Shown here: piece after piece, positions 3,420 through 29,438 of the stretch
Layout of the letters: every line of letters starts with the position of its first letter
How positions within the stretch are numbered: position 1 is the stretch's first letter
NCBI GenBank assembly: GCA_045641145.1
Contig: JAZUGJ010000073.1
Coordinates: 12,846 to 76,845, forward strand
Reading direction: 5' to 3'
Origin: Paludibacteraceae bacterium
GTDB taxonomy: Bacteria; Bacteroidota; Bacteroidia; Bacteroidales; Paludibacteraceae
DNA: 64,000 bases
Translations under genes and position numbers: made by a program
Notes under the pieces: model-generated
What the model saw: the letters and a program-made list of their open reading frames with translations, nothing else
Database searches by the model: none
What the model was told of the DNA's origin: nothing

Positions 3420-3461
3420 GTGCGCCCCGTCCGTACAATGTATGGGCGTGTGGATTAAAAC
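3420..3461 (+). repeat. solitary type I-C-like CRISPR repeat, degenerate with an enlarged loop, sense to the operon
   Basis: GTGCGCCCC-gtccgtacaatgtat-GGGCGTGTGGATTAAAAC. The 3' 18 nt match the array repeats at 17/18. Ends 19 nt before ATG 3481. Confidence 0.6.
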
Positions 3462-3480
3462 AAACAAAAAAGGAGAAGCC

Positions 3481-3954
3481 ATGTATCTGCTGAACAACTT
3501 AAAAGCAATCGACACCACTTCTGTCGAAGACCTTGAAGAGGTTGTGTCCGAGATTGCGGAGTGCATGAACCAGAACCACCTCGCTTGCCGTTTCCTGCGT
3601 GGTTGGTACGGTATCTCTGCGTTTGATATCGACCACGACCCCGATGTCATTGCTCTTATGAGCATAGGCGGTTACGGCAAGAGTGCAAGAGCAATCGCCG
3701 CCCTCTGCGACTGCTTCGGTCATCACGCTATGTGGTATGACGGAGATTTTCGCCGTGCTACCAATGACGAAATCGAAAGAGAAGTGTACGACATCGCCCG
3801 TTCTGATTGGGACAAGTTCTACCAGAATGTCTTCTCTTTCTTTGATGCCGTCATGCAACAGACCGAGATGGACTTTTCCACCATTTCCGCTATTCTGGAA
3901 GCCATCAGCCTTGATTGGACGGTGGAAGTGCTTGCCAAATTCTGCGGCAAGTAA
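3481..3954 (+). CDS. uncharacterized early protein, paralog family 1, copy C
   Basis: ATG 3481 after AAAGGAGAAG. 157 aa. Family motifs present: VEDLEEVVSEIAECM, CRFLRGWYGISAFDI, DWDKF, WTVEVLAKFCG. Confidence 0.6.
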   Translation: MYLLNNLKAIDTTSVEDLEEVVSEIAECMNQNHLACRFLRGWYGISAFDIDHDPDVIALMSIGGYGKSARAIAALCDCFGHHAMWYDGDFRRATNDEIEREVYDIARSDWDKFYQNVFSFFDAVMQQTEMDFSTISAILEAISLDWTVEVLAKFCGK

Positions 3955-3971
3955 TATTGTACAAGGTCTTC

Positions 3972-4004
3972 GTCACACCCCACATGGGGTGCGTAGATTA
4001 AAAT
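3972..4004 (+). repeat. solitary type I-C-like CRISPR repeat, sense to the operon
   Basis: GTCACACCCCACATGGGGTGCGTAGATTAAAAT (33 nt). Near-identical to array repeat 24609-24641 read on the minus strand. Ends 20 nt before ATG 4025. Confidence 0.8.
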
Positions 4005-4024
4005 ATACGGAGAGGAGAAAGCGT

Positions 4025-4309
4025 ATGCTGATTATTCCTGAATGGGTGCTGACCGTCCTGCCCGAACACGAACTTGTGGAGCGTACCGTGTTCTGCGGTC
4101 TGTACGAAGTAACGCACGGCGGCAATTGGGCAGACCCCGCCGACCTCACCGAGACCAGAAAGTGGACTCGCCTTACCGCCTACGGCATCCGTGATGTCGC
4201 ACAGGAGCTGGTGGAAACTGGTCTTGTGGAGAAATTTCCGCACCCCGAAACCAAGTACAGGGTTAATGTGCAAGCCGTCACAGAAGCCCTCGATAGAAAG
4301 GAGCAGTAA
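4025..4309 (+). CDS. small winged-helix-like DNA-binding protein (hypothetical)
   Basis: ATG 4025 after GGAGAGGAGAAA. 94 aa. The segment TAYGIRDVAQELVETGLVEKF is HTH-like. Confidence 0.5.
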   Translation: MLIIPEWVLTVLPEHELVERTVFCGLYEVTHGGNWADPADLTETRKWTRLTAYGIRDVAQELVETGLVEKFPHPETKYRVNVQAVTEALDRKEQ

Positions 4310-5088
4310 TGGTAGGAGTTAATTCAGCGGACGGGTTACGGCTCGACCTTGCGGTAAAAGACTCACGGAGCGACTTCCTGTGCGCTCTGGATGCGGTTCT
4401 GGACGGATTGTGGCAATCGAAAAACCTGTGCAAGGCATACCGCTTTGTGTTTTCGGAAAGTCGCACACAGTATTACGAACCTCGACTTTGGGAAGATATG
4501 GTAGTACTGTGCGAAAGGGTATATGCCCCGTGGTTACTGCACGACTTGCGGAACTATGACCCGAAAACCTGCTCTTTGATTTCTGTGAAAAGAAATTCAG
4601 AGACCAACAGCACTTACAGATGTGTTTCCGTAGATGATGTAAAACACGCTTTTGCAAACAATCTTCTGGTCAGCTACGATGCTTACAAGACTTTTTTACG
4701 GACTATCCAAAGAGATGATATGCATAATCCAGATGCTGTTGCGTTTGCAAATTTCGGATGGGACTATCATGTCATAGTGAACAATCAAGACTTTCTGGAT
4801 GCGTCCAAGGTTCTTTTTATTCCGAACTGGGCAAACAAGCTATCTCTTGACCCCGTGCAGAATATCGTGTTAGCTTACATCTACGATATAACAGTTGACG
4901 GCGGTTCTGTCTGCAACGATGACTATAGCTATATTCTGGACTGGTTCAGCGATAAAACAGAAGCCGATATCGGCAAAGCAGTAGAACAGCTTGCGGAGCG
5001 CAATCTCGTCACCGTTGTGGAGCGTGGTGACAGAACGGCGTATATTGCTCACAAGACGGAAATCAATCGGAAGTTAGGCGAGGGATAA
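4309..5088 (+). CDS. hypothetical protein with an N-terminal Cys module related to ORF 1397 and a C-terminal wHTH-like region
   Basis: TAATG overlap with the previous gene. LWQSKNLCKAYRFVFSESRTQYY resembles the duplicated module of 1397-2269. The C-terminal KAVEQLAERNLVTVVERGDR is wHTH-like. Confidence 0.5.
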   Translation: MVGVNSADGLRLDLAVKDSRSDFLCALDAVLDGLWQSKNLCKAYRFVFSESRTQYYEPRLWEDMVVLCERVYAPWLLHDLRNYDPKTCSLISVKRNSETNSTYRCVSVDDVKHAFANNLLVSYDAYKTFLRTIQRDDMHNPDAVAFANFGWDYHVIVNNQDFLDASKVLFIPNWANKLSLDPVQNIVLAYIYDITVDGGSVCNDDYSYILDWFSDKTEADIGKAVEQLAERNLVTVVERGDRTAYIAHKTEINRKLGEG

Positions 5089-5089
5089 G

Positions 5090-5971
5090 ATGCTACAGAT
5101 TTCGTACCAGATAAAAACCGCCCTCGGTCTGACCTTGCAAGAAGCGATTGTATTTTCCATAATCCACCAGTCGTGTGAAGCTGGTGATGACTACAAAATC
5201 GGAGAAGACCTTACCCGATGGTTTGACGGAGCAGACCTCACGGATACCTTTTCAGCCCTCGTAAACCACGGGCATATACGGAAGATTAAAAAGGATGTAT
5301 ACCGCTCCACACGCCACGCCAGAACCCTTATAAATAGGGTATTAGAAGAACAGGCAAAGGCACAGAACCCGCCCCCTAAAGTTGCTGTGAAAGCAAGAAA
5401 AAGCCGCACCTTAGAAGACGAAATTTCTGAAGACTTCAAAAAATGGTGGGATGCATATCCCCGCAAGGTATCAAAGCGAGAAGCGTGGAACAGGTACAAG
5501 ACCATCGTGAAGAACAAAGAAATGTCCGAGGGCGACCTGTTACTTGCGGCAAAGATGTATGCCTATGAGTGCGAGAAGAAACACACAGAAGAAGACTTCA
5601 TAAAGCACCCCGCAACTTTCCTGTCAGCAAAGGATAGATACTTTGAAGAGTATCTTGAAATGTACCGCCGCATAAAGAGCAAGACAAAAAAAGCACCGTC
5701 AGCACCAAGTGCCAACGGCGACCACCCTGCATATAACGGCGGCAGATTGCTCACAAGTGACGGTGGGCAAATATCCCACTTCCGTATCACGGCAAACGAC
5801 ATCGTTATCCCCATTCTGGTAAGCGGAGTTGAAAGTTCTGAACACTATACCGCTCACAACGGCATTTTCCAAACCCCAGACGGATTTGTCTGGTATCGTT
5901 CTCCCTCTTTCGGGAAAACGATAAAAGCCAGAAGCGTGGAAGAAGCAAAGGCAATAGCAGACCAATACTAA
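5090..5971 (+). CDS. putative replication-organizer / DNA-binding protein
   Basis: N-terminal wHTH-like region (LTLQEAIVFSIIHQ...LVNHGHIRK). The central motif DFKKWWDAYPRKVSKREAWNRY is common in phage replication-associated proteins. This is recalled from memory, not searched. Confidence 0.4.
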   Translation: MLQISYQIKTALGLTLQEAIVFSIIHQSCEAGDDYKIGEDLTRWFDGADLTDTFSALVNHGHIRKIKKDVYRSTRHARTLINRVLEEQAKAQNPPPKVAVKARKSRTLEDEISEDFKKWWDAYPRKVSKREAWNRYKTIVKNKEMSEGDLLLAAKMYAYECEKKHTEEDFIKHPATFLSAKDRYFEEYLEMYRRIKSKTKKAPSAPSANGDHPAYNGGRLLTSDGGQISHFRITANDIVIPILVSGVESSEHYTAHNGIFQTPDGFVWYRSPSFGKTIKARSVEEAKAIADQY

Positions 5972-6075
5972 AGCCCCAATATAGCGCACACAGCGGCTTG
6001 TAAGAGCGTTTTATCCAAAGGGTATACTGATATACCCAAACAGGGAAAACCTCTCACAGAGCCGCTGTGCGTTTG

Positions 6076-7080
6076 TTAGGCGTATTTAATTGTGTTATCC
6101 AAAGTATTCTTGTACTTCAGAACATTTTTCCACGGAGTAGGAATACCCCTAAAGCCGTAATATATCCCTGCGATACTTCCTGCGACTGCACATCGCACGG
6201 TAGTAGTTTCGCCGAGATTAGCCAACTTCAGCATGGTTTCATCATATTCCTTACCGTTGCACAAGCCCCACATGATGGAAGCCATCATATCCACAACGCC
6301 GCCGCCATTTGGAATATGGGACATAGGCTTATGGGACAGAACATCCAAGTCGTTCTGGAAACGCCGACTTGCGTTGCGGAGCGCAATATCCGTAGCAGAT
6401 TGATAATAGCGGATAGCGTTATCCAGCCCCTCTTGCAGTAGCTTGTTCATAGGAACGGAAACTCTGTCATTCAGAGTGGCATCCCTTGCGAACACGACCT
6501 CTTTGATGCAGAAGTAGATTATCCCGCAAGCCACCTTTGTTTCCGGGGTATCGTTCGTGAGGGAAGCAACGCTGTGTACAAGCTCTATTGCATCCTTATC
6601 GTATGCTCCCGTTTCAATGGCGTACATACACACAGGTACAATTCTTGATAATGCGCCGCCGTCATCGAGCTTTGTTCCGCAATACTTTGCGTTCTTTCTG
6701 CCGTAACGATAGTCGTCAATCGACTTGTCGCAGGACTTCGGAAGTTCCACGACCTTGCCGTTGATAGCATACTTCCCGAAAGTCATAAAATTAACATAGC
6801 ACGACATGACATGGTCAAGGTTGACCTCGTGCTTTGTTACGATACTATCCGTAGTTGCCAGAGCAAGGCTGGTAGCCGATGACCAAGTACCCTCTGGAAA
6901 GCGGTTGTATGTTCCGTACCCGCTCATGGTAAGAATGGGACGGCGCATCAAATCGCCCCGTCTGTAACGGCTGGCAGGAAGTGCGAGTGCATCTCCGACT
7001 GCCATGCCATAGATAGCGTCACGCCACAGTACTCTAAAGCCAATCCTGTCCCTCTGGGTTTCAAAAGCGTGTGGTTTCAT
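6076..7080 (-). CDS. ADP-ribosylglycohydrolase family protein
   Basis: ATG 7080 after AAGAGG. N-terminal motif IYGMAVGDALALPAS. C-terminal motif LGETTTVRCAVAGSIAGIYYGFRGIPTPW, where the usual GGDTDT is replaced by GETTTV. Confidence 0.75.
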   Translation of the reverse strand: MKPHAFETQRDRIGFRVLWRDAIYGMAVGDALALPASRYRRGDLMRRPILTMSGYGTYNRFPEGTWSSATSLALATTDSIVTKHEVNLDHVMSCYVNFMTFGKYAINGKVVELPKSCDKSIDDYRYGRKNAKYCGTKLDDGGALSRIVPVCMYAIETGAYDKDAIELVHSVASLTNDTPETKVACGIIYFCIKEVVFARDATLNDRVSVPMNKLLQEGLDNAIRYYQSATDIALRNASRRFQNDLDVLSHKPMSHIPNGGGVVDMMASIMWGLCNGKEYDETMLKLANLGETTTVRCAVAGSIAGIYYGFRGIPTPWKNVLKYKNTLDNTIKYA

Positions 7081-7090
7081 AGTATACCTC

Positions 7091-7492
7091 TTACTTCCTG
7101 CCGCACCCGCCGTGAGGGTCACGATAACAACAGCAAGCACACTTGTCGCTATCATCCACTTCACCGTTATCGCCGTTCACATCATACTCCAACGGCTCTG
7201 GCATCGGCATCCAAGACATCACTTCATCTGGTGATATTCCAAGACTGTATGTACCCTCGGTTTCGTGGCAACAACGGATGCAGTAGGTATATACCCCACA
7301 ACAGAATGTGTGGTCATTATCACTCTCCGCCGCCTTGAAGCCGTAAAACTTTCCGGGCATCACGATAAATTTCCCCGCCCTCTTGAGCGTGAACAAAACC
7401 CACTCATCGGACGGCGGCTGACTTTCTGTAATCAAAGTCCAAGAAAGTGTCCTTTCCCGAACCAGTTCAGATAACTCTGGCATTTGCCGCAT
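7091..7492 (-). CDS. DUF551-like phage protein with a Cys-rich insert
   Basis: 133 aa. Contains ...SWMPMPEPLE, the hallmark W-M-P-x-P-E-P of DUF551-type proteins, plus several CC/CxxC clusters. Confidence 0.5.
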   Translation of the reverse strand: MRQMPELSELVRERTLSWTLITESQPPSDEWVLFTLKRAGKFIVMPGKFYGFKAAESDNDHTFCCGVYTYCIRCCHETEGTYSLGISPDEVMSWMPMPEPLEYDVNGDNGEVDDSDKCACCCYRDPHGGCGRK

Positions 7493-7499
7493 CCCCTTT

Positions 7500-7889
7500 T
7501 TATTCTTCTTCTGTATCCGTTATGATATGGAAGTCACACTCATCTGTGTGACACAAAACAATAAACGGGCATTTATCGGGACAGGTATCCATAACTTCTT
7601 CATTATCAAAGTCCTCTGGAAACTCTGCGCCATCCTGCTCTTTCTTCTCAAGGTATTCCGTGTAGTACTCACAGCACACCTCTTGAAACATCTCTTTTGC
7701 GCACCGCAGACCGAGATAAAAGCCTCGTGCCTCTACAATATCCTCATCGTTAAGTGTATTGTTTGTATATTGTTCTAATAAAGAAAGCACCCGCCGTGCG
7801 GTTTTTTCTTCTTTGATTGTTTCAGATAGTCTACGGGAAAATTCCAATGCGGTAATTCCGTAGGCATCATCGAGATATATATATCCCAC
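7500..7889 (-). CDS. hypothetical acidic protein
   Basis: 129-aa ORF tightly packed in the operon. No recognised motif. Confidence 0.5.
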   Translation of the reverse strand: MGYIYLDDAYGITALEFSRRLSETIKEEKTARRVLSLLEQYTNNTLNDEDIVEARGFYLGLRCAKEMFQEVCCEYYTEYLEKKEQDGAEFPEDFDNEEVMDTCPDKCPFIVLCHTDECDFHIITDTEEE

Positions 7890-7891
7890 GG

Positions 7892-8107
7892 TCAGAAGTC
7901 CTCGTCAGTATAACTATCCTCTGGTATTTCGTATGCCACAGGCATCTCTTTCAGTATCTGCATGGAACGCAGAAGACCGATAGCTTTTCCGATACTTTCG
8001 GCACAGCTTTCCGCATCTTCTATGTTTTCGCTGGCATCGCAGAGATTACCAACGCATTCCTCTTTAATAGCGTCCAAGCAATCGTATAGTTCGACCATTC
8101 TACTCAT
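7892..8107 (-). CDS. hypothetical protein
   Basis: 71-aa ORF packed 2 nt from the next gene. Confidence 0.45.
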   Translation of the reverse strand: MSRMVELYDCLDAIKEECVGNLCDASENIEDAESCAESIGKAIGLLRSMQILKEMPVAYEIPEDSYTDEDF

Positions 8108-8292
8108 CGCCTTTCGTCAATAATGTCTTGTACTATGTCCAAAGCCGAGTCATAGCCAGACAACTCCCCATCTCGAATTGACGCAGTAATAAAATCGCCG
8201 TCATCGTACCTTTTCTTGATGTCCAAGTCCTCACATTGCTCGATTTCGCCCTTGATAATATCCACGAAATCATCAACATTTATCATAGGCAT
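8104..8292 (-). CDS. hypothetical small protein, tandem paralog set
   Basis: 62 aa with an ATGA overlap. Shares an overall pattern (....GY..A.D.I) with 8299-8508 and 8539-8712. Confidence 0.45.
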   Translation of the reverse strand: MPMINVDDFVDIIKGEIEQCEDLDIKKRYDDGDFITASIRDGELSGYDSALDIVQDIIDERR

Positions 8293-8298
8293 TGGCTG

Positions 8299-8508
8299 TC
8301 ACCGTCCTTTTCCTTTGTCTTTGGTGTCTATAAACTCGTTATAACCCTGTGCCTGTCGTATTGCGAGAATAGCATCGGAAATGCCACGCTCTCTCCCCAG
8401 CGCATAATAAGCATCTTCGTTGTAAGGTTTTTTTATATTATCAAAAATCTCGTGCCATTTCTCACTTAATGAAGCGACAAGCTCCTCCGCATTGATGTAT
8501 TCTTTCAT
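8299..8508 (-). CDS. hypothetical small protein, tandem paralog set
   Basis: 69-aa ORF similar in length and pattern to its neighbours. Confidence 0.45.
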   Translation of the reverse strand: MKEYINAEELVASLSEKWHEIFDNIKKPYNEDAYYALGRERGISDAILAIRQAQGYNEFIDTKDKGKGR

Positions 8509-8538
8509 ACTGACCTCCGAAATGCGGAAACAGTTCAG

Positions 8539-8712
8539 TTATTCGTTGCGAACCTCGATGGGTATCATACCCTTTATGACATCAATCGCTTTCTGGTATC
8601 CTACCATTTCAATTGCGAATAGGAATTTCCCCCCGCCGTCAACGGTATCTTTAGCATCAAGCAGTTCTTTCAAAATCAATCTAATAGCTTCTTCCTTGTC
8701 GATAAGTTCCAT
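8539..8712 (-). CDS. hypothetical small protein (57 aa, below the ORF-track cutoff)
   Basis: Hand-translated: ATG 8712 after AGGGAG gives MELIDKEEAIRLILKELLDAKDTVDGGGKFLFAIEMVGYQKAIDVIKGMIPIEVRNE, with the stop at 8539. It fills an otherwise empty gap. Confidence 0.4.
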   Translation of the reverse strand: MELIDKEEAIRLILKELLDAKDTVDGGGKFLFAIEMVGYQKAIDVIKGMIPIEVRNE

Positions 8713-8748
8713 ACAAATTCTCCCTGTTTCCAGTTCTTACACATAAGG

Positions 8749-9210
8749 TTATTTTTTGGACTTTCTTCTGTCACGGATAATCTTATTCACCATGTCCGAT
8801 GTCTTTTTCTCGGCTTCAGACTGGTTCGCCGGGGTTTGTGGTTCGGCAAAAGCGGTCTGACCTTGCTTCTTCATCTTCCCACCAAGTGGGGGCAAGGGTT
8901 TCAGACCGCCGTAGTCTTTTGGTTTTCCATTTTTTCTTTGAGCGAGTTCCTTTTTGCGAAGCCCAAGTTTCTCCGCTTCACGCTCTTTCTGATATTCTGC
9001 CATGCTGAACGGAATAGGATATTCAACTGGCATCCATGCAATCATGTGCTTACTGCTATAGATATGCCCCTTGCCGTCATTCCACGGATACGATTCGTTC
9101 TGCTGGGGGTCATATCGCATCATCCAGACCACGCCTGTCTGCTCACGGGTAACGAAATACATACCCTCTGTAGCTGGCATACGCTCATTGGTCAATGTCC
9201 ATTTAGCCAT
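8749..9210 (-). CDS. DUF551-like phage protein with a basic C-terminal tail
   Basis: N-terminal MAKWTLTNERMPATEG...IAWMPVEYPIPF fits the DUF551 pattern. Confidence 0.55.
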   Translation of the reverse strand: MAKWTLTNERMPATEGMYFVTREQTGVVWMMRYDPQQNESYPWNDGKGHIYSSKHMIAWMPVEYPIPFSMAEYQKEREAEKLGLRKKELAQRKNGKPKDYGGLKPLPPLGGKMKKQGQTAFAEPQTPANQSEAEKKTSDMVNKIIRDRRKSKK

Positions 9211-12409: not shown

Positions 12410-12438
12410 TTGACTTTTTCAGAAGATGGTTGTATAAT
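12410..12438 (+). promoter_or_regulatory. orphan near-consensus promoter on the non-coding strand
   Basis: TTGACT (12410-12415), 17 nt, TATAAT (12433-12438). There is no plus-strand ORF downstream, and a terminator follows about 30 nt later. Confidence 0.45.
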
Positions 12439-12466
12439 ATAAGTGAATTAAAATAGGACTTACTAT

Positions 12467-12507
12467 AAAAAGAGAAGTGCCGCCGAAACGACACTTCTCT
12501 TTTTTTA
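12467..12507. terminator. bidirectional intrinsic terminator
   Basis: AAAAGAGAAGTG-loop-CACTTCTCTTTTTTT. A 9-bp stem flanked by an A-run and a T-run. Confidence 0.6.
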
Positions 12508-15611: not shown

Positions 15612-15959
15612 TTACAGATTTAAGGATACTCGGAGTGCCTGTTTCACCTTGAGCATATCCAACTCGGTAAGAGTGTCGATGTACTTGCCCACACGGTCAA
15701 TCGAAACGCTATGCACCTGCTCACACAGAACACGCCCGTTCACTTTTTCGGTCTTCACATCGGCATGAGTCGGCATCTGCTTGCGCAGGTTCTGTGTGAA
15801 GTAGCAAATTTCCAGAACAGAACCAGTTTCGTTCAGAACATCGTTGCTGACTACCACGGCAGGGCGACCGCCTCTGCACTCGTTGCCGACTTCTACATCA
15901 CGGGGGAAAATATAGTACACCTCTCCGTAACGATAGGTGCGGTTCTTTTCTTTATCCAC
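15612..15959 (-). CDS. MazF/PemK-family endoribonuclease toxin-like protein
   Basis: GTG start 8 nt after AAGGAG. GEVYYIFPRDVEVGNECRGGRPAVVVSND...CYFTQN...PTHADV...EQVHSVSIDRV follows the PemK/MazF pattern. Confidence 0.75.
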   Translation of the reverse strand: MDKEKNRTYRYGEVYYIFPRDVEVGNECRGGRPAVVVSNDVLNETGSVLEICYFTQNLRKQMPTHADVKTEKVNGRVLCEQVHSVSIDRVGKYIDTLTELDMLKVKQALRVSLNL

Positions 15960-16543: not shown

Positions 16544-16567
16544 ATTTATTCTCCTTTTCATTCATTC

Positions 16568-16598
16568 ATTTGTTCCACACACCTCGTGGGGGTGCTAC
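16568..16598 (-). repeat. degenerate solitary I-C-like repeat in the 5' UTR of gene 16543
   Basis: The minus strand reads GTAGCACCCCCACGAGGTGTGTGGAACAAAT. About 22 of 31 positions match the array repeat consensus (GT.GCACCC....GGTGTGTGGA..AAAT). Ends 24 nt before the ATG. Confidence 0.45.
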
Positions 16599-16639
16599 CG
16601 TTAAGCGGTGGGGCGGTTGCCCGCCCCCTGTCGGATGGT

Positions 16640-17327: not shown

Positions 17328-17783
17328 TTATGCAGAAACGGAATAGCCGTCACAGTACTCGGCAACCGCTTCGGCAATCCAGCCGTGCCGAACGACAGCC
17401 AGTACGGGGGACATCGCCGGGTTGGTAGCGGCGTACTCCTCGACCTTGCGGCAGAAGAGACTCCAGTCGGAGCGGACGACTTCGGAGAAGTCATCCTCTG
17501 CGTTGTTCTGGGAGTACCGCTCGTACCCATACTCGGTGTACAGCAGGTTGTCACCGTACAGGTGAGAAATTTCCGCACAGGTGGATGCGTAGCCGTGAGC
17601 GTCCATTGCCTCTCTCATATCCTCTTCGTTGAGGATATCATAGGCTTCGATGTGGTACATCTTGCGCAGGAAGTTGCACATGATGTTCTCGGAGCGCAGG
17701 TAGTCAGATGCACCACCCATCACGGTGAACAGGTCTTCGTAGTCGGCGGGGTTCATGTTGGGCAGATTGTAGATAGCGTTCAT
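17328..17783 (-). CDS. uncharacterized early protein, paralog family 1, copy D
   Basis: 151 aa: MNAIYNLPNMNPADYEDL...CNFLRKMYHIEAYDI...AMDAHGYASTC...DWSLF...WIAEAVAEYC. Clearly paralogous to 2435-2905. Confidence 0.6.
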   Translation of the reverse strand: MNAIYNLPNMNPADYEDLFTVMGGASDYLRSENIMCNFLRKMYHIEAYDILNEEDMREAMDAHGYASTCAEISHLYGDNLLYTEYGYERYSQNNAEDDFSEVVRSDWSLFCRKVEEYAATNPAMSPVLAVVRHGWIAEAVAEYCDGYSVSA

Positions 17784-17798
17784 AAAAAAACCTCCGTT

Positions 17799-17830
17799 AT
17801 TTTAATCCACGCACCCCGTGCGGGTGCGAC
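17799..17830 (-). repeat. solitary type I-C-like CRISPR repeat in the 5' UTR of gene 17783
   Basis: The minus strand reads GTCGCACCCGCACGGGGTGCGTGGATTAAAAT. It lies between promoter 17871-17899 and the RBS, and ends 15 nt before the ATG. Confidence 0.85.
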
Positions 17831-17870
17831 CGTTGAAGTATTATTGATGTCATCCGCTTGGGACAAGTAT

Positions 17871-17899
17871 ATAATACCACACGGTCAAGATAGTGTCAA
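17871..17899 (-). promoter_or_regulatory. sigma70-type promoter with extended -10
   Basis: Minus strand: TTGACA-17 nt-(TGG)TATTAT. A TTTTGCAATTTTGCAG motif sits just upstream at 17905-17920. Confidence 0.7.
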
Positions 17900-22788: not shown

Positions 22789-22821
22789 GTTTTAATCCAC
22801 ACACCCCGCACGAGGTGTGAC
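22789..22821 (-). repeat. solitary type I-C-like CRISPR repeat upstream of nrdG
   Basis: The minus strand reads GTCACACCTCGTGCGGGGTGTGTGGATTAAAAC. Ends 33 nt before the nrdG ATG, with the RBS AGGAG in between. Confidence 0.85.
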
Positions 22822-22826
22822 GCTAT

Positions 22827-22865
22827 CTAAAAAGAAAACGCTGTAGCATAGCAACTACAGCGTTT
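22827..22865 (-). terminator. intrinsic terminator between two repeats
   Basis: Minus strand: AAACGCTGTAG-8 nt loop-CTACAGCGTTT followed by TCTTTTT. Confidence 0.6.
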
Positions 22866-22901
22866 CTCCTCGTCCGCCAAAGACATTTTATCCGCATACC
22901 T

Positions 22902-22933
22902 GTTTTAATCCACGCACCCCGTTGGGGTGTGAC
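22902..22933 (-). repeat. solitary type I-C-like CRISPR repeat
   Basis: The minus strand reads GTCACACCCCAACGGGGTGCGTGGATTAAAAC. It is followed by about 35 nt and then the terminator at 22827-22865. Confidence 0.85.
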
Positions 22934-23025
22934 GACAAGGTATGCACCGTCCCACCTGCATGAAACGGCATCCCACATCCAAGAAAGAATATAACACATT
23001 CCAGACGACTTGTCAACGCCCTTTT

Positions 23026-23687: not shown

Positions 23688-23871
23688 ATCCCCTTAACTC
23701 TTTTCCGCACATTGGGCAGAAGTTTATTCGCACACCTATGCCGTTTCTGCCGCTTCCGTGAATGTCATACCCGTATGCAAACAAGGTGTTTGGAAAACTC
23801 AATGCAATTCCTTTATCGTTTGTTTCTCCAATTACTAATGCTTTTGCTTTGTCACAATATTCGCACATCAT
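23680..23871 (-). CDS. small zinc-ribbon protein
   Basis: 63 aa with CEYC ... CPMC pairs. Confidence 0.45.
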   Translation of the reverse strand: MMCEYCDKAKALVIGETNDKGIALSFPNTLFAYGYDIHGSGRNGIGVRINFCPMCGKELRGCE

Positions 23872-23916
23872 TTCTTCTCATTTCCTTTCTTATTTTTTGG
23901 AGTCTCGGTTTTGTTT

Positions 23917-24108
23917 TCAAATTGTTGAGATTTTATTTGTGTGGTATCTGTTCCAGTCTTTAATTGCAACTTCAAAGCCATGCACTTCGTGAGTTGATGA
24001 ACCTCTCCCGCAAATAGGGCAGGTGAAGCTGATATACTTTTTCTGATAAAGAATATCTGGAAACACACCGCAGGTTTTGCATTTCTCTAATCCCTCAATA
24101 TCGAACAT
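23917..24108 (-). CDS. Lar-like restriction-alleviation family protein (putative)
   Basis: Start at ATG 24108. LEKCKTCG...FTCPICG...FEVAIKDWNRY matches the CxxCG...CxxCG...Ai..WN pattern of Lar-type proteins. Confidence 0.5.
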   Translation of the reverse strand: MFDIEGLEKCKTCGVFPDILYQKKYISFTCPICGRGSSTHEVHGFEVAIKDWNRYHTNKISTI

Positions 24109-24222
24109 AAAGCACCTTTTTTCAGATTGTTGATACATCGTAATCACAGCCGAAATATGTGCCACCGTCATCTCTGAATTTCACTGCAACCTGTGCATCC
24201 TGTGGCATCTTTTTCAGTTCAC

Positions 24223-24252
24223 TTTTTAATCCACTCCTGCATAAAGCGTGAC
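24223..24252 (-). repeat. decayed repeat remnant
   Basis: The minus strand reads GTCACGCTTTATGCAGGAGTGGATTAAAAA. The ends are conserved (GTCAC...GTGGATTAAAA) but the stem is lost. Confidence 0.3.
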
Positions 24253-24409
24253 CAGTTGTCTACATTTTGCGGACAACTGGTTGTTTTTTCAAAAATTGGA
24301 TAATTGGATTCTTAAAATAGTGTTTTACCTCTCGGCTTTTAACCCCAAAACTAACCGCCCCTATTACGGGACAGTAGGTGAGTCGAACACCTGTCTCTAT
24401 TTTTTAATC

Positions 24410-24775
24410 CTTTTAATTCACGCACCCACATGGGGGGACGCAAGAAGACCGCAACAGTCTTGCGACTACATTACTTTTAATCCACGCACCCCATACAGGG
24501 TGTGACCCACGATTCCGGGCGCAGAGGTTGCATTGGCGTTGATTTTTTAATCCACACACCCAGCACGGAGTGTGACTAAAGGACGTGTAACGGCTAATGT
24601 CTGCCGCCATTTTAATCCACACACCCCATGTGGGGTGTGACTTTGTTTCTGGCCGACCACCACACGGTTTCCCGATATTTTAATCCACGCACCCCACGCA
24701 GGGTGCGACTATCGGACGCACCTACTACCCAACCAAGACGAGGTTTTAATCCACACATCCCGTGTGGGATGCGAC
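24410..24775 (-). CRISPR. CRISPR array with type I-C-like repeats: 6 repeats, 5 spacers
   Basis: Repeats lie at 24743-24775, 24677-24709, 24609-24641, 24544-24576, 24474-24506 and 24410-24442, the last being degenerate. Spacers are 33, 35, 32, 37 and 31 nt. The minus-strand repeat reads GTCGCAYCCC..GGG.TG.GTGGATTAAAAY. The degenerate repeat is distal to the cas8c-like gene. Confidence 0.9.
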
Positions 24776-24922
24776 AGCAAACATCAACAAAGCGGGTAGC
24801 ATTGTTTCCCTGTGATTACTGCATGATGCACAGATTTTGCCGAGGGAACGGTCACAATTTACGGTTTCTGTGCGAGAACCGCCGAAAGGTGTAATTTTTC
24901 TTGTGCGAACCTACTGGAGTTT

Positions 24923-26362
24923 TTATGCACACTTGGGGTTCGCATCGAGAACATCCGTGCCGTATCTGTCGTAATTGTACTTACGGAGAACGGCGCAAGC
25001 GACAAACATCATATGCTCACGGACGCTTGTTTTGTCGTAGTCAATCGTGCCGAACTTTGCGAGATTGTGCTGAAGAGCGTTGACCACATCGAACGGGATA
25101 GTACCGCCGTTGACCATAGCACTCATAAGGCGGATGAACACTCGGTTCGTTGCGTGTTTATCGACAACAAACGAGCCGTCCCGATAAGTGCCGTAGGCGT
25201 ACTTTATGATGTCGCTGATGGACGGGGAATCGAAAGTGGTAACATATGTTTCCTTTTTCTTATCCCACACCGCACGATACCAACTGCACTTCTCTTTCCA
25301 GTCACAGACTTTCTTTAAGAAGTCGTATTTCGGAGTTTCAGCGAGGGCGATGATAGAGTCTCTGCCAGTGTTTGCTCTGTAGGAAATGTAGGTCACATTG
25401 TCCTCAATCGTGTTGCGGCGGCAACCGTTAAGGATTTCCCCCAGTTCCCGTCTGTAGTCGGGGAGCGTAGCGCAATGGCTTTCCACAAACTCGCCGGGCA
25501 GACCGATGTTGATGTGTTCGCCGTTGTAGTCCCAAACAAGGGTAACGACATCGTCATAAGTCTTTGCGTAGTTGGTTACTGCCCACTTCAGCAGATTAGC
25601 TGACTTGGATACCGCAACAACGCCAAAGGCGGCATCATCGGCGTTAGGGACACGCATATTGAGCTTTTTGGTAGACTCATTCGAGAACATCGACACGAAA
25701 GAGGGATATTCTCCGTTTTTCGGAAAACCATCGGATGCGATATCCAGTTCCCCAGTGACCTCACAGATGGTCATACGGGATGCAGGGTCGTTTTCGAGCA
25801 GATTTCTGTAATACCGCTCATACACCCGCATAAAGTCCCTATCTTTGTGGGGAAGCGTGTTGCCGATTCTCCAACGGACTAACGACTTGTCGTTGTACAG
25901 TTTGACAGTGTTGCCATCCTTTACCGTGTGAAGTGCGGTAACACCGTCAAGGTCGGAGAGACAAGTGCCGCCCATGACATACTTGTATACCGCATCAACA
26001 ATGGGCGTGGTATATTCCGAATCGTGCCATGCGGAAAGTTTTCCGATATAATCCGCATGGTGAGCAGTTCCCATATCAGCGACACAACGCAACTGGTCTG
26101 CAAAGCCCTTGGCACACACATTACTGGTAACTCGTTCAGAATCACAGGTACAAGGCACGATTGTGTACCTGTCCCAGTTGCCTCTGACATCGGGGACGTG
26201 GACAGCGTTCACAAAATGCCCATCCCAGTCGATTTCGATTTCCAGACTTGCGTGAACCGTAGCGTGGTACACAGGGGCAAGCGGCGACATACCATCGTAG
26301 TACTCGCCGACAATGGATTCCAACTTGTCATAGGAACGGACTGCCTTGCCGATGATGTCCAT
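24923..26362 (-). CDS. cas8c: Cas8c (Csd1)-like large subunit lacking the C-terminal small-subunit domain
   Basis: Start at ATG 26362 after AAAGGAAG. 479 aa. The layout follows Csd1: MDIIGKAVRSYDKL, RYTIVPCTCDSERVTSNV, SFVSMFSNES..NADDAAFGVVAVSKSANLL, NVTYISYRANTGRDSI, RLMSAMVNGGTIPFDVV, ACAVLRKYNYDRYGTDVLDAN-stop. Similarity was judged from the remembered family consensus. Confidence 0.65.
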   Translation of the reverse strand: MDIIGKAVRSYDKLESIVGEYYDGMSPLAPVYHATVHASLEIEIDWDGHFVNAVHVPDVRGNWDRYTIVPCTCDSERVTSNVCAKGFADQLRCVADMGTAHHADYIGKLSAWHDSEYTTPIVDAVYKYVMGGTCLSDLDGVTALHTVKDGNTVKLYNDKSLVRWRIGNTLPHKDRDFMRVYERYYRNLLENDPASRMTICEVTGELDIASDGFPKNGEYPSFVSMFSNESTKKLNMRVPNADDAAFGVVAVSKSANLLKWAVTNYAKTYDDVVTLVWDYNGEHINIGLPGEFVESHCATLPDYRRELGEILNGCRRNTIEDNVTYISYRANTGRDSIIALAETPKYDFLKKVCDWKEKCSWYRAVWDKKKETYVTTFDSPSISDIIKYAYGTYRDGSFVVDKHATNRVFIRLMSAMVNGGTIPFDVVNALQHNLAKFGTIDYDKTSVREHMMFVACAVLRKYNYDRYGTDVLDANPKCA

Positions 26363-26366
26363 GCAG

Positions 26367-26618
26367 TCACTTCCTTTCGCAGTCCAGCCCAAGGGCACGG
26401 AGTTCGTCCACCACGGAGTTATATCCGTCACGCCACTCGGAAGTGGGGATGTCAGCCGCAGAATAGCCGTTTGCGTTTGCGGTGAACAGTGCGTCCATAA
26501 GGATGTTTCCCGCAAGAGCAACCACATCCTCATCCTGTACGCCATAGGTCAGCTTCATGACCGCAAGTACCCGTCCTACTTGATACGAGTTACGGGCGAT
26601 ACGCTCTTTTTCTGTCAT
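26367..26618 (-). CDS. small protein, possible detached Cas11c-like small subunit
   Basis: ATG 26618 after AAAGGAG. 83 aa. It lies 4 nt upstream of the cas8c-like start. The N-terminus ...ARNSYQVGRVLAVMKL resembles the AYxLGRLFAxLE segment that opens the Cas11-like C-terminal domain of canonical Cas8c. Confidence 0.35.
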   Translation of the reverse strand: MTEKERIARNSYQVGRVLAVMKLTYGVQDEDVVALAGNILMDALFTANANGYSAADIPTSEWRDGYNSVVDELRALGLDCERK

Positions 26619-26671
26619 TGTTATTCTCCTTTCATTGTCGGAACACTCGGCACAACGCCTTGTTCTCTTAA

Positions 26672-26700
26672 AGTATACCACCGCCAAAGTGTTGTGTCAA
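26672..26700 (-). promoter_or_regulatory. sigma70-type promoter with extended -10 for the cas operon
   Basis: Minus strand: TTGACA-17 nt-(TGG)TATACT, with an A/T-rich tract upstream. Confidence 0.65.
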
Positions 26701-26720
26701 GTGTTTTTTTTGAAAAGTTT

Positions 26721-27062
26721 TTATTCTGCCACTCTGTAGCTTGTAGCGAGCATATCAATGATTTCGGCAAGGCAATCAATCTGCCCATCCGACATACGCC
26801 CGATAGTAGCAAGGATGCGGACACGCTTTTCCTTTGTGGACTCTCTGCGGAAACTGACCTCGGTCTTTTCATCCTCGGCAAAGTAATCCATGCCGATGCC
26901 GATAAACTCGCAGTACTTTGCAAGGGTGTTGTAACTGGGGTTGCGTTTGCCGTTTTCCAGAAGCGAGATGCCGTTCTGGTGGATACCAAGTTCCCTCATG
27001 ATATCGTACTGGGAAAGCCCTCTGTCGATGCGCAGTTTACGCAGTTTCTCGTTCACGGTCAT
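26721..27062 (-). CDS. XRE-family HTH transcriptional regulator
   Basis: MTVNEKLRKLRIDRGLSQYDIMRELGIHQNGISLLENGKRNPSYNTLAKY is a canonical Cro/CI-type HTH. Confidence 0.8.
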   Translation of the reverse strand: MTVNEKLRKLRIDRGLSQYDIMRELGIHQNGISLLENGKRNPSYNTLAKYCEFIGIGMDYFAEDEKTEVSFRRESTKEKRVRILATIGRMSDGQIDCLAEIIDMLATSYRVAE

Positions 27063-27403
27063 CAGCAGTCACCTCTCTCGATTAAATCAGACGGGCTTTC
27101 CACCTTGTCCTCGCACAGAGTAACCATCTCGAAATCCTCGATGGGCAGGTTGACTTCCTTTTTCAGCTTGCCAGAGAAGCCGTCCAAGTTGAATTCTTTC
27201 TCGATAACGGTGGTTACATAGTTGTCGGGAAACCGCTTGTACCATCCCAGAAAATCGTCATTGGTTATTACGCTTCTGATGGCGGCTAAAACATCTGGGG
27301 TAACGGCATAAAACGGAGAGGTATGGTTGCCGCCGCAGACAGGGGTGCGGACAAGGTATAAATCCTTGTATTCCTTGTGGCGGAAAAACTTGAGTGGCTT
27401 CAT
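27062..27403 (-). CDS. hypothetical protein
   Basis: 113-aa ORF that overlaps both flanking genes by 1 nt. Confidence 0.5.
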   Translation of the reverse strand: MKPLKFFRHKEYKDLYLVRTPVCGGNHTSPFYAVTPDVLAAIRSVITNDDFLGWYKRFPDNYVTTVIEKEFNLDGFSGKLKKEVNLPIEDFEMVTLCEDKVESPSDLIERGDC

Positions 27404-27906
27404 CAGCGGTCACCCCCCACGATAAACGGCTCGCCGCCCTTTCTGCGGATGCGGTAGTCCACCTCGACAAGGAAGTGGATGGGACTGGCAGGGACTGTTG
27501 CGCCGTGCAGGTCGGTGAAGTCATCGTCCATGTAGGCGAGGATGTCCTTGCAGTCGGCTTCGTCCAGAACGGACATACCGTCCAAGAGCTTGCCGAAGCG
27601 GAAAGCCTCTGGGTTCACCACCTCGTAAGAGGCGGCGTTGATGGCGTAGCAAGCCATGAAGAAAACCTTTTCCTTGTTCATAGTATCATTCTCCTTTTTA
27701 GTTTCGGGCATCTCTCTGTTGTACTCTTCGGGTATCTTTCTGTCCCAACACTCTTTGCAGTATAAGCCGCCTAACCAACACAGAGCGAAGTCACAATCGT
27801 GAAACTGCTCGTACCTGTAAATATGGGGACAGGCGAAACATCCACCCACATATTTATCATCCACATACTCTGGGCGTTCCCGTTTCAGTTTTTCTCTAAA
27901 GGTCAT
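27403..27906 (-). CDS. Cys-rich MTFREKLK-family protein, copy D, fused to an extra C-terminal domain
   Basis: Start at ATG 27906 (MTFREKLKRERPEYV...GGCFACP...CKECWDRKIPEE). The reading frame continues about 90 aa further. An internal start at MNKEK is possible. Confidence 0.5.
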   Translation of the reverse strand: MTFREKLKRERPEYVDDKYVGGCFACPHIYRYEQFHDCDFALCWLGGLYCKECWDRKIPEEYNREMPETKKENDTMNKEKVFFMACYAINAASYEVVNPEAFRFGKLLDGMSVLDEADCKDILAYMDDDFTDLHGATVPASPIHFLVEVDYRIRRKGGEPFIVGGDR

Positions 27907-28124
27907 TTCTTTTCCCCTGCCTTTTCGGGCATCTCTCTGTCCCAACATTCTTTACACTTTATCCCAATTGACCAACACATGATGCAGTCGTGTGTGCAAT
28001 TAGGAAGTGTCAGCGGTGCGGAAGACTCGTATCCGTAATCATGCGGGCATAAGTTGCATCCACCCACATATTTACTGCCAACGCACTCTGGGTGTTCCTG
28101 CTTCAGCTTCTCTCTAAAGGTCAT
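27903..28124 (-). CDS. Cys-rich MTFREKLK-family protein, copy C
   Basis: ATG 28124 with an ATGA overlap. MTFREKLKQEHPECV..GGCNLCP..CKECWDREMPE. Confidence 0.55.
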   Translation of the reverse strand: MTFREKLKQEHPECVGSKYVGGCNLCPHDYGYESSAPLTLPNCTHDCIMCWSIGIKCKECWDREMPEKAGEKK

Positions 28125-28333
28125 CTTCTGGCATCCTCTTCTGGCACTTCCCTGTCCCAACAAGCTCTGCACAGCAACCCATCGTTGATTCCGTAATCCC
28201 CTTTCACATCAAGGCAGTGCGCAGGGTAATCAGCCTCGAAACCAAAGGTGACGGGACAGCCGTAGCACCCGCCCATGAACTCGTCACCGACCTCTGCGGG
28301 ATACTTCAGCTTCAGTTTTTCTCTAAAGGTCAT
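28121..28333 (-). CDS. Cys-rich MTFREKLK-family protein, copy B
   Basis: MTFREKLKLKYPAEV..GGCYGCP..CRACWDREVPE. Confidence 0.55.
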   Translation of the reverse strand: MTFREKLKLKYPAEVGDEFMGGCYGCPVTFGFEADYPAHCLDVKGDYGINDGLLCRACWDREVPEEDARR

Positions 28334-28785
28334 TCTTTTTCCCCCTTGTATGGTTCAGGCATCGGCATCCATGCCATACCGTCCACGATTTCACCGTAGC
28401 TCTCAAGGTAACACATACTACCGTCCATTCCAAAAACATCTGACGAAACAAACCCGTTATAGGAAACGAGAATCTCCTGACCGTCATCGGGGAGCTTGCC
28501 GTCAATAATCTCACGGGCTTCGTTCAGTTCCCGCTCCTCATAAGAAGAAGCTTCCCACTCTTCATCGGTCATCTTTCTTATGCGCCACACGTTCCACCCC
28601 ATTACGGTTGGAGCGGCTTCCAGAGCCTTTTCTGCGGCTTCGATGCCGTAGTCTTCCGGGTCTTCCCATACCCATTTGCCAAGTCCGTAGCAGGTTTCTG
28701 CACAGTACATATTGGCTTCATAGTCACCACGCCCATGTAAGGCAACCAGTGCCTCCTTGAGAGCATCTGCATCAATTAGTCTCAT
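28330..28785 (-). CDS. DUF551-like phage protein
   Basis: Start at ATG 28785 (MRLIDADALKEAL). The C-terminus is GMAWMPMPEPYKGE. Confidence 0.5.
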   Translation of the reverse strand: MRLIDADALKEALVALHGRGDYEANMYCAETCYGLGKWVWEDPEDYGIEAAEKALEAAPTVMGWNVWRIRKMTDEEWEASSYEERELNEAREIIDGKLPDDGQEILVSYNGFVSSDVFGMDGSMCYLESYGEIVDGMAWMPMPEPYKGEKE

Positions 28786-28969
28786 CGTCATCCCCCTTTT
28801 CGGGCATCTCCCTGCTCCAGCATTCATGACAGGTGATTGCGTCATTGTCGCATTCGGTGGGTCTTGCGGCTTCGTATCCGAAAACACTCGGACAGCTAAG
28901 ACAGCCACCTCCGAAAACATCGCCAACATATTGAGGATGTTCCTTTGCGAGTCGTTCTCTAAATGTCAT
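28772..28969 (-). CDS. Cys-rich MTFREKLK-family protein, copy A
   Basis: ATG 28969 after GAGGGAG. MTFRERLAKEHPQYV..GGCLSCP..CHECWSREMPE. Confidence 0.55.
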   Translation of the reverse strand: MTFRERLAKEHPQYVGDVFGGGCLSCPSVFGYEAARPTECDNDAITCHECWSREMPEKGDDDETN

Positions 28970-29027
28970 AACACTCCCTCTTACATTCCGGGCATCCATC
29001 AGATGCACTTTTCGTTGCCTGTGCTAT

Positions 29028-29056
29028 TATACTACCACGGGCATTTTCTCTTGTCA
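29028..29056 (-). promoter_or_regulatory. sigma70-type promoter with extended -10
   Basis: Minus strand: TTGACA-17 nt-(TGG)TAGTAT. A TTTCGCAATTTTGCAAAA motif sits just upstream at 29064-29081. Confidence 0.65.
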
Positions 29057-29125
29057 ACCCCCGATTTCGCAATTTTGCAAAATTTTTTTGCGGCAAACTT
29101 TTTTATATGAATTGCAATAAAATTC

Positions 29126-29153
29126 TTGACACATAGAAAAGAAGTGCTATAAT
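29126..29153 (+). promoter_or_regulatory. sigma70-type promoter with extended -10 driving a solitary repeat
   Basis: TTGACA (29126-29131), 16 nt, TGCTATAAT (-10 at 29148-29153). The repeat starts about 13 nt after the predicted TSS. Confidence 0.7.
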
Positions 29154-29172
29154 GTATGTATACCAGTTAAAG

Positions 29173-29204
29173 GTCGCATCCCATGCTGGTGCGTGGATTA
29201 ATAT
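29173..29204 (+). repeat. solitary type I-C-like repeat, plus orientation, with a variant 3' end
   Basis: GTCGCATCCCATGCTGGTGCGTGGATTAATAT. No credible ORF lies downstream, and the terminator at 29257-29300 follows. Confidence 0.75.
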
Positions 29205-29256
29205 GAGGAAGCCCGTGCCTCTCTCGCACAGTACAAGCCGTACAAGACCGTATTGT

Positions 29257-29300
29257 AAAATGCCGCTCTGCAAGGTCAGTTCCCTGCAGGGCGGCATTTT
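29257..29300. terminator. bidirectional intrinsic terminator
   Basis: AAAATGCCGCTCTGCAAGG-loop-CCCTGCAGGGCGGCATTTT. A long imperfect palindrome flanked by A and T runs. A second small hairpin lies at 29306-29325. Confidence 0.65.
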
Positions 29301-29405
29301 ACATTTGTAACACATTTTGTGTTACATCTTTAATTTCCCGACCTCGTCATCGTAGATTGATAATGGCTTGTTGGCTTTCAGTTTTTCCATGCTCTGTTTC
29401 TTGGT

Positions 29406-29438
29406 CTTTTAATCCACACATCCCGTGTGGGATGTGAC
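29406..29438 (-). repeat. solitary type I-C-like CRISPR repeat
   Basis: The minus strand reads GTCACATCCCACACGGGATGTGTGGATTAAAAG. It differs from the leader-proximal array repeat (24743-24775) at 2 positions. Confidence 0.85.

Follow-up and report, generated by a model that had tools for sequence, protein, structure and literature searches.

The window analysed here is a 64,000-nucleotide (nt) stretch of phage DNA (contig JAZUGJ010000073.1, positions 12,846 to 76,845 of the forward strand; assembly GCA_045641145.1, deposited under Paludibacteraceae bacterium). It carries a series of short repeats that resemble those of type I-C CRISPR arrays. Some of these form a small array beside a gene for a truncated homologue of Cas8c, and 11 copies stand outside the array in intergenic DNA, the property by which solitary repeat units are recognised. 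The preliminary description of the window had reported solitary repeats shortly upstream of the start codons of several genes. In the current analysis the sequence, structure, orientation, promoter context and conservation pattern of the repeats, as well as their turnover between relatives, have been observed directly, and on this basis their possible roles are discussed.

Solitary type I-C repeats of the early region

The 11-nt tail of the repeat, GTGGATTAAAA, occurs 17 times in the window with at most one mismatch, against 1.57 expected, and none of 100 shuffled sequences reaches 17. A covariance model (R1), trained on 16 copies with an 8-bp stem and run without filters, likewise identifies 17 copies with an E-value of 6e-5 or better, comprising a six-repeat array and 11 solitary copies. 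The copies are confined to 3.4-33.7 kb, the early / DNA-metabolism part of the window, and the model finds none in the structural part at 34-64 kb. Rfam gave no match at gathering thresholds over the whole window and, at permissive thresholds over 22.7-24.95 kb, a chance snoRNA match alone (E 0.41). A tRNA scan of the window found none.

The copies are made up of GTC, an 8-bp stem, a 4-nt loop and the tail UGGAUUAAAAY, and match cellular I-C-type arrays with the tail GTGGATTGAAAY. They have the layout of about 32-33 nt with a short 5' overhang, a G+C-rich stem of 7-8 bp, a loop of 4-5 nt and an 11-nt 3' tail starting with UGG. Their earlier designation as I-C-like is borne out by the alignment, by the covariance model and by this layout shared with cellular arrays. 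The handle reads ATTAAAA in nearly every copy of the window, and a few degenerate copies diverge further. In the 8-bp stem 90% of the cells are paired, and four stem pairs are changed on both sides, chiefly from G-C to A-U and from C-G to U-A.

The information per position was measured on 26 distinct copies pooled from the window and from a relative, represented by three contigs of one sequencing run (L141, L262 and L263) that share about 96% identity with the window along extended stretches. It is highest in the tail (1.5-2.0 bits), intermediate in the stem (1.0-1.6 bits, with compensatory changes) and lowest in the loop (0.6-0.9 bits). Cas5c is reported to read the cut site, the base of the stem, U22-G23-G24 and the 3' overhang, and not the loop or the 5' overhang (PMC8524198). 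As this order of conservation follows the reported determinants of Cas5c, the selective constraint on the copies looks like that of remaining a substrate or ligand of Cas5c. The cut assumed in the preliminary description, which would leave a 21-nt hairpin on the upstream RNA and an 11-nt handle on the downstream RNA, agrees with the published biochemistry, in which the products bear a 5'-OH and a 2',3'-cyclic phosphate (PMC8524198). Assembly is nucleated by Cas5c and Cas7, which clamp the handle, and the complex of Cas5c, Cas7 and CRISPR RNA (crRNA) is stable without Cas8c or Cas11c (PMC7684278). Two other roles have been ruled out, namely intrinsic termination, as no U-run follows the hairpin, and self-targeting by handle-led RNAs, as the would-be position of the protospacer adjacent motif (PAM) is occupied by the repeat tail (AAC, AAT or AAG) and not by TTC.

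Two solitary copies on the plus strand are interspersed with members of a family of early paralogs referred to as family 1. The first (3418..3461, +; model R1 25 bits, E 5.7e-5; 3420-3461 in the earlier listing) has a long loop, begins 1-3 nt past the stop of the family-1 gene 3063-3416 and lies 19 nt before ATG 3481, with AGGAG as the motif resembling a ribosome-binding site (RBS). The second (3971..4004, +; 44 bits; earlier 3972-4004), with the tail GTAGATTAAAAT, lies 17 nt past the stop of the family-1 gene 3481-3954 and 20 nt before ATG 4025, the RBS-like motif being GGAGAGGAG. On the minus strand, a degenerate copy with the tail GTGGAACAAAT (16567..16599, -; 30.8 bits; earlier 16598..16568) precedes a gene for a protein with an acidic tail, 24 nt from ATG 16543 with the motif AAGGAG. 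The copy at 17799..17831 (-; 46.9 bits; earlier 17830..17799) is situated in the 5' untranslated region (UTR) of the family-1 gene 17783..17328, 15 nt from ATG 17783 with the motif GGAGG. Another (22789..22822, -; 48.3 bits; earlier 22821..22789) lies directly past a terminator-like hairpin and 33 nt before ATG 22755 of nrdG, with the motif AGGAG. The last copy of the earlier listing (29406..29439, -; 47.8 bits; earlier 29438..29406) is found 15 nt before a doubtful open reading frame (ORF) of 22 codons.

These six repeats all stand as listed earlier, with their coordinates, strands, sense orientation and position 15-33 nt 5' of a start codon. The accompanying statement that the repeat ends just before an RBS holds for five of the six, which have a clear Shine-Dalgarno-like motif and a credible gene, and fails at 29438..29406, where no RBS is convincing. 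The list was correct in its entries and incomplete, since five further solitary copies had been overlooked: 22903-22934 (-), 24224-24253 (-, degenerate), 29172-29203 (+), 33658-33690 (+) and 33691-33723 (+). The first of them (22902..22934; 43.4 bits) belongs to a unit of promoter, repeat and terminator. The second (24223..24253; 30.8 bits) is situated downstream of the array and is fused to the 5' end of a small ORF. The third (29172..29204; 34.9 bits) is antisense to the local genes and has its own promoter and a strong hairpin behind it, and the remaining two, one good and one degenerate, abut each other at 33658..33724 (46.5 and 32.2 bits). All three plus-strand additions sit among minus-strand genes, each behind the phage promoter of its unit. 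Two close pairs are thus found among the solitary copies, 22934/22822 at a distance of 79 nt and the abutting 33658/33691.

A consensus scan for sigma-70-like promoters, scored out of 12, revealed a small set of very strong promoters in the repeat-bearing region. Four solitary copies lie 19-54 nt behind promoters scoring 10-12, and the remaining copies lie within co-directional operons. A perfect consensus (29126-29153, +; 12/12) precedes the repeat at 29172; the promoter at 23016..22988 (-) lies 54 nt before the repeat at 22934; that at 17899..17871 (-; 11/12 with TG) precedes the repeat at 17831; and that at 33592-33620 (+) precedes the repeats at 33658/33691. The operon with the order 3063 - repeat - 3481 - repeat - 4025 is headed by an early promoter at 2989..3017 (+; TTGACA-17-TATTAT, 11/12 with TG). 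Three of the four promoter-repeat units close with terminator-like hairpins and have no gene in between. They extend from 23016 to 22835 (-; terminator 22866..22835), from 33592 to ~33765 (+; terminator ~33727-33765) and from 29126 to ~29326 (+; a 19-bp hairpin at ~29254-29303), with fold z-scores against shuffles of -3.6, -5.8 and -5.4, respectively. Such a layout appears to be that of a classic solitary-repeat small RNA, and the unit around 33658..33724 resembles a gene for a small RNA. Within this predicted RNA (33627-33765, +; z -5.8) a 13-bp helix joins the degenerate second repeat to the stem-loop of the first, by which the first repeat could be either masked or presented.

All other copies occupy 5' UTRs or the gaps between co-directional cistrons and are always in sense (7/7). 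Together with the copies that stand behind their own promoters, this upholds the earlier observation that the repeats are always in the transcribed sense, and all 11 copies are, by their predicted context, positioned for sense transcription. As two plus-strand units occur among minus-strand genes, the orientation tracks the local transcript rather than the strand of the genome. The preliminary description was right about the orientation, and contained neither these promoter-repeat-terminator units nor the truncation of the Cas8c homologue beside the array.

At a separate locus, 12410-12500 (+), transcription from a strong promoter (TTGACT-17-TATAAT) is predicted to start at GTGAATTAAAAT, behind which comes a terminator-like hairpin. 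The arrangement is conserved in the relative. The sequence GTGAATTAAAAT resembles a handle without its hairpin; as the covariance score is only 11 bits, the resemblance may be due to chance.

The closeness of the repeats to start codons was assessed against a crude null, in which a 33-nt element is placed at random in the intergenic DNA of 1-34.3 kb, as defined by hand-curated gene calls. A sense start is found 12-40 nt downstream of 5/11 solitary copies. The null probability of such a position is 0.094 with random orientation, giving a binomial P of 0.002, and 0.187 with the orientation of the nearest gene, giving a P of 0.04; the null is dominated by long promoter-bearing gaps. By a rough estimate, if the element is required to be transcribed and yet untranslated, about half of the available positions would fall within 40 nt of the next start, and this would erase the enrichment. 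A decoy hairpin that has to be transcribed and not translated would, in compact operons, end up just upstream of the next RBS. The spacing from repeat to start is variable (15, 19, 20, 24 or 33 nt in the window, 49 nt in the relative).

Mini-array, truncated Cas8c homologue and neighbouring genes

The array identified by the covariance model (24410..24776, -) has six I-C-type repeats and spacers of 31-37 nt. All six repeats are mutually different and show compensatory changes in the stem. No protospacer was found for the array spacers in the collected loci, INPHARED or PLSDB or, by exact 24-mers, in IMG/VR, and there is thus no sign that the phage depends on a functional Cascade of its host. 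One spacer recurs in the array of the relative itself. Just past the array, an 86-nt sequence (24316-24401, -) contains a T-arm-like hairpin, GGTGTTCGACTCACC. It is 100% identical at L141 1877-1962, where it lies behind its own promoter and a solitary repeat, and ARAGORN and Rfam returned nothing for it.

Directly upstream of the array is a solo Cas8c (Csd1) homologue (24923..26362, -; Pfam PF09709, E 4e-30), whose start, giving a protein of 479 residues, was taken from P0002. In an exhaustive HMMER comparison it aligns with residues ~1-465 of Cas8c proteins of about 600 residues at 29-32% identity and then ends. Residues 489-612 of Desulfovibrio vulgaris Cas8c form the small-subunit domain, which is also translated separately as Cas11c (PMC7684278). 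The end of the alignment at ~465 of ~600 residues therefore indicates a Cas8c homologue devoid of the C-terminal Cas11c / small-subunit domain. A sequence search of this protein against PDB gave no match, and no other close relatives were found among 5.8 billion proteins. It is the only I-C cas-type gene among the window proteins scanned, and no Pfam match to Cas5 or Cas7 was obtained among these 20 proteins. The truncated homologue could serve as a dominant-negative subunit of Cascade.

The grouping of genes into a paralog family 1 has been confirmed by tblastn. The family comprises five early paralogs, encoded at 1397-2269, 2435-2905, 3063-3416 and 3481-3954 (+) and, as paralog D, at 17328..17783 (-). 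The isoelectric point is 4.3-4.5 in the four single-domain copies and 5.3 in the two-domain copy 1397-2269. Among 5.8 billion proteins no homologue was found beyond this phage and one relative, and there is no PHROG or Pfam match. The AF2 model is confident (pLDDT 90) and has no fold match in PDB or BFVD. Family 1 is considered a candidate anti-defence family. The repeats before paralogs C and D were considered as relics of one gene duplication, and this was rejected, as the two proteins share 24% identity and the stretches from repeat to ATG show no relationship.

Among the other genes behind the repeats, the identification of nrdG (Pfam Fer4_12, E 6.7e-39) and of the acidic-tail protein is sound, while the protein starting at 4025, earlier called winged helix-turn-helix (wHTH)-like, has no Pfam or PHROG match to bear out that name. 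The early region also encodes an ADP-ribosylglycohydrolase (6076-7080, -; E 1e-38) and, at 15612-15959 (-), the counterpart of a gene of the relative annotated as a PemK-like toxin from a precomputed Pfam match; both may likewise act in anti-defence or addiction. Four small Cys-rich paralogs in tandem, which start with MTFRE(K/R)L and contain CxxC motifs, are encoded at 27808-28969 (-) and correspond to the direct-repeat families D3 and D7.

The phage lineage is rare. A search of IMG/VR for relatives with the helicase and with the alignment of family 1 returned nothing, and INPHARED gave short matches of about 70% alone, to unannotated fragments of human-faecal phages.

Turnover of the repeats among related elements

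The relative allows the placement of the repeats to be followed site by site; the comparison covers this one relative and the sites other than those at 29.2-29.4 kb. The repeat at 3418-3460 is identical in sequence and context (L262 10984-11026). At 17800-17831 the position is kept, and the 5' arm has diverged far more than the flanks. The counterpart of 3971-4003 (L262 11540-11572) is still found 17 nt past the stop of the upstream gene and is strongly diverged, with the canonical-G tail GTGGATTGAAAC. Beyond it a promoter and a gene for a protein of 143 residues are inserted in the relative, where the wHTH-like gene has no repeat upstream. The repeat at 16568-16599 is absent from the relative by a clean 36-nt indel (window 16568-16603 against L141 8854-8855). 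Before nrdG, the relative has the same repeat as at 22790-22822 and, behind it, one more terminator module and a degenerate repeat at a distance of 49 nt from the gene.

In place of the repeat at 22903-22934 the relative has only 'AA' against 35 nt of the window (22903-22937; L141 2389-2390), and this indel falls in the loop of a hairpin, gcatacct/aggtatgc. No target-site duplication accompanies the indels of 35-36 nt. The single copy at 24223..24253 corresponds to two similar copies in a rearranged context (L141 537-567 and 847-878). The first of the abutting repeats, 33658-33690, is identical in the relative, with the second about 135 nt away and not abutting. The interval from the array to nrdG contains the same modules reordered, with repeats at the junctions, and the array of the relative (L141 1-330) shares 1/5 spacers and is irregularly spaced. 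Between two degenerate solitary repeats of the relative, L141 575-808 has inverted repeats of about 30 nt around some 170 nt; it is absent from the window and may be a small mobile or invertible segment.

Thus the placement before an RBS and start codon is kept at two of five comparable sites, both before family-1 paralogs (C and D). At the other three the repeat is absent, is tied to the upstream gene, or is itself altered along with its spacing. This does not support the systematic architecture of repeat, RBS and ATG proposed in the preliminary description. The site-by-site turnover argues that placement beside a given downstream RBS is not a conserved design, and the position of the repeat is not tied to the downstream gene.

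In exact-pattern scans, this repeat family turned up in a large number of viral and metagenomic contigs from the human gut. Most of them, with L003, L005, L010, L011, L018, L150, L224, L253 and others as examples, carry irregularly spaced arrays in which nearly every repeat is different, so that heterogeneous repeats look like a general trait of elements with this repeat family. Solitary copies in other elements rarely precede an ORF, a sense ORF start with RBS being found within 60 nt for 4/35 of them against 3/35 in the antisense control. Cellular I-C-type arrays fetched from genomes have the tail ATTGAAA almost throughout, the A variant being merely an odd terminal repeat. In metagenomes, long uniform arrays of ATTAAAAT adjoin cas2, cas1, cas4 and a C-terminal fragment of Cas3 (L172). 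A scan of a genome collection for the repeat tail yielded, among the matches listed, mostly single chance matches, and no host emerged.

Possible roles and comparison with known systems

On balance, and with a confidence only a little above even, we read the solitary copies as type I-C repeat mimics, that is, as solitary repeat units or RNA anti-CRISPRs of the Racr type. The host RNA polymerase would transcribe the repeats in sense from early phage promoters, some as small RNAs of promoter, repeat and terminator and others as passengers in the 5' UTRs of early operons or in the gaps between their cistrons. Each copy would present the base of its hairpin, the cut site and the 11-nt handle to the host Cas5c, which would bind and probably cut after the stem. 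Together with Cas7, Cas5c would then nucleate dead-end complexes on phage RNA in place of the host crRNAs. As a speculation, the heterogeneous mini-array and the truncated Cas8c homologue may plausibly join in the same poisoning of Cascade assembly. Among the three hypotheses of the preliminary description, the sponging of Cas5/Cas7 is the one favoured by the evidence, and nothing here supports the part concerned with cleavage-dependent regulation.

Several points weigh against a decoy role. Transcription, binding of Cas5c/Cas7, cleavage and inhibition of interference are what we infer from sequence. The matching host I-C system is presumed; the window copies have ATTAAAA, whereas most cellular I-C arrays have ATTGAAA, although the long uniform A-variant arrays beside cas genes make this variant compatible with a working system. 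Solitary repeat units have been described as not associated with cas genes (PMC10651486, citing Faure et al. 2019), whereas a cas8c-like gene and an array are present here, at 170 nt to 21 kb from the solitary copies. If the array were a working guide array, inhibition of Cascade would be self-defeating. If Cas5c and Cas7 occupied a handle 15-33 nt from an AUG, translation of the phage's own genes ought to suffer. The family-1 proteins match no known anti-CRISPR protein (Acr), and the parallel with the pairing of acr and racr is merely positional. The proximity to start codons, modestly enriched under the crude null (P 0.002-0.04), leaves room for a role linked to the RBS.

Such a role would be the punctuation of operons by Cas5c, which we consider unlikely. 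Cleavage would divide the transcript into hairpin-capped upstream pieces and downstream pieces led by a 5'-OH handle, and could act as a host-sensing switch, as the translation or stability of the downstream gene would hinge on host expression of I-C. The cleavage chemistry and site of Cas5c fit this proposal, as do the five of 11 solitary copies that end 15-33 nt before a real RBS and ATG, the modest enrichment that persists under the crude null and the conservation in the relative of both sites before family-1 paralogs. Against it stand the acidic-tail gene of the relative, which has no repeat at all, its wHTH-like gene, which has none while the repeat remains with the upstream gene, and nrdG, where both spacing and repeat differ. 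Four copies of the window belong to units with no gene behind them, same-family solitary copies elsewhere precede ORFs in only 4/35 cases, and the spacing is not fixed but takes the values from 15 to 49 nt given above.

Equally doubtful, in our estimation, is a composite in which one precisely gained or lost element would soak up Cas5c/Cas7, punctuate operons through its cutting and provide junctions for cassette swaps, perhaps with dead-end complexes capped by the truncated Cas8c. The last of these functions taken alone, namely that the dispersed repeats act at the level of DNA as short recombination modules for the exchange of early-gene cassettes between co-infecting phages, is improbable. 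Breakpoints relative to the related phage do coincide with the 3' ends of repeat tails (window 4004, 24224 and 33690; L141 2492), the modules between array and nrdG are reordered with repeats at their junctions, and single units are gained or lost precisely. The breakpoints are few and come from one relative, and shuffling is an expected side effect of any dispersed repeat. Recombination also leaves unexplained the strict sense orientation, the promoter-repeat-terminator units and the Cas5c-like conservation with its compensatory stem changes.

It is similarly improbable that some of the units and the array produce guide-like regulatory RNAs (Cracr / crlRNA) that would silence host cas or defence promoters, loaded in host Cas5c-Cas7, perhaps capped by the truncated Cas8c of the phage, and binding without cutting. 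Viral crlRNAs that hijack Cascade, including I-C, have been reported (preprint 10.1101/2024.10.29.618823), and the window has units of promoter, repeat, sequence and terminator, array spacers of normal length and a Cas8c without the Cas11c domain. Against this, the sequences between paired solitary repeats are 79, 0 or ~135 nt long and hence not spacer-sized, and the copies embedded in mRNA are unexplained. Least probable of all is a Cas-independent RNA element descended from a CRISPR repeat (a stabiliser, a processing site or a nut-like binding site): the copies behind early promoters and between cistrons do occupy the usual place of phage antitermination and stability elements, but it is precisely the I-C handle and cut site that are conserved best, the array and the Cas8c homologue are linked in the same genome, the missing U-run speaks against an intrinsic terminator, and no candidate phage RNA-binding factor was identified.

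The element that a decoy role would most closely resemble is already known. Solitary repeat units often occur immediately downstream of a promoter, and RacrIC1, which inhibits type I-C, is situated 11 nt past acrIC5 on one bicistronic RNA (Camara-Wilpert et al. 2023, PMC10651486). The claim of novelty made in the preliminary description was therefore overstated, as promoter-proximal solitary units and an I-C Racr 11 nt after an acr gene had both been described, and RacrIC1 beside acrIC5 provides a precedent for a repeat riding on an mRNA. A solitary repeat unit or Racr is expected to have a promoter within some 250 bp on its upstream side, to be expressed in the sense of its repeat and to face a host CRISPR-Cas system of the same subtype; the co-localisation of Racrs with acr genes is a statistical tendency rather than a requirement. 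Like the repeats of the window, Racrs are single CRISPR-repeat mimics in phage intergenic DNA, often promoter-proximal and, for I-C, with hairpin and handle. The repeats here begin 1-3 and 17 nt past the stops of two acidic family-1 genes. Unlike Racrs, the present repeats number eleven copies per genome, most of them in 5' UTRs or intercistronic gaps; no two copies have the same stem and loop; they are accompanied by a mini-array and by a truncated cas8c; the neighbouring proteins are not known Acrs; and their function is putative.

The virus-borne mini-CRISPR arrays of inter-virus conflict (PMC11656645) are similar in being short arrays of host-type repeats without a full cas operon, whose content varies between close relatives. 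Their repeats are identical to those of the host and their spacers match related viruses, whereas all six repeats of the present array differ and no protospacer was found. Cracrs, which exploit the loading of host Cas effectors and include reported I-C examples (preprint 10.1101/2024.10.29.618823), share the succession of promoter, degenerate repeat, short sequence and terminator. They differ in that a Cracr is by definition partly complementary to a host cas promoter with a PAM, and the inter-repeat distances seen here are not spacer-like.

Cleavage sites of Csy4/Cas6 were reportedly engineered by Qi and co-workers in 2012 as insulators between 5' UTR and RBS. There, too, a repeat hairpin lies immediately upstream of the RBS and cleavage would set a defined 5' end; those insulators are a synthetic design, while the placement seen here is not conserved between close relatives and the cleavage is putative. 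The promoter-stem-loop (PeSL) mobile regulatory cassettes of T4-type phages, said to have been described by Arbiol and co-workers in 2010, offer a parallel in DNA organisation: repeated modules of an early promoter and a hairpin lie on either side of hyperplastic early genes, at places where shuffling breakpoints also fall. No relationship links PeSLs to CRISPR repeats, whereas what recurs here is an I-C repeat whose handle is conserved.

The kind of element is therefore known, and the present data are not yet evidence for a new mode of gene regulation. What is unusual is the copy number, the diversification, the embedding in mRNA, the precise gain and loss, and the presence of a truncated Cas8c alongside. 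The Racrs described to date are single small RNAs; eleven I-C mimics, a heterogeneous mini-array and a Cas8c without its small-subunit domain would show a layered attack on one host complex. According to a recent review, viruses have seemingly recruited repeat RNAs and not Cas proteins as inhibitors (PMC11656645), and the truncated Cas8c could be a counter-example to this. Near-identical phages differ by the exact gain or loss of single repeat units, and this provides a way to ask how such units spread.

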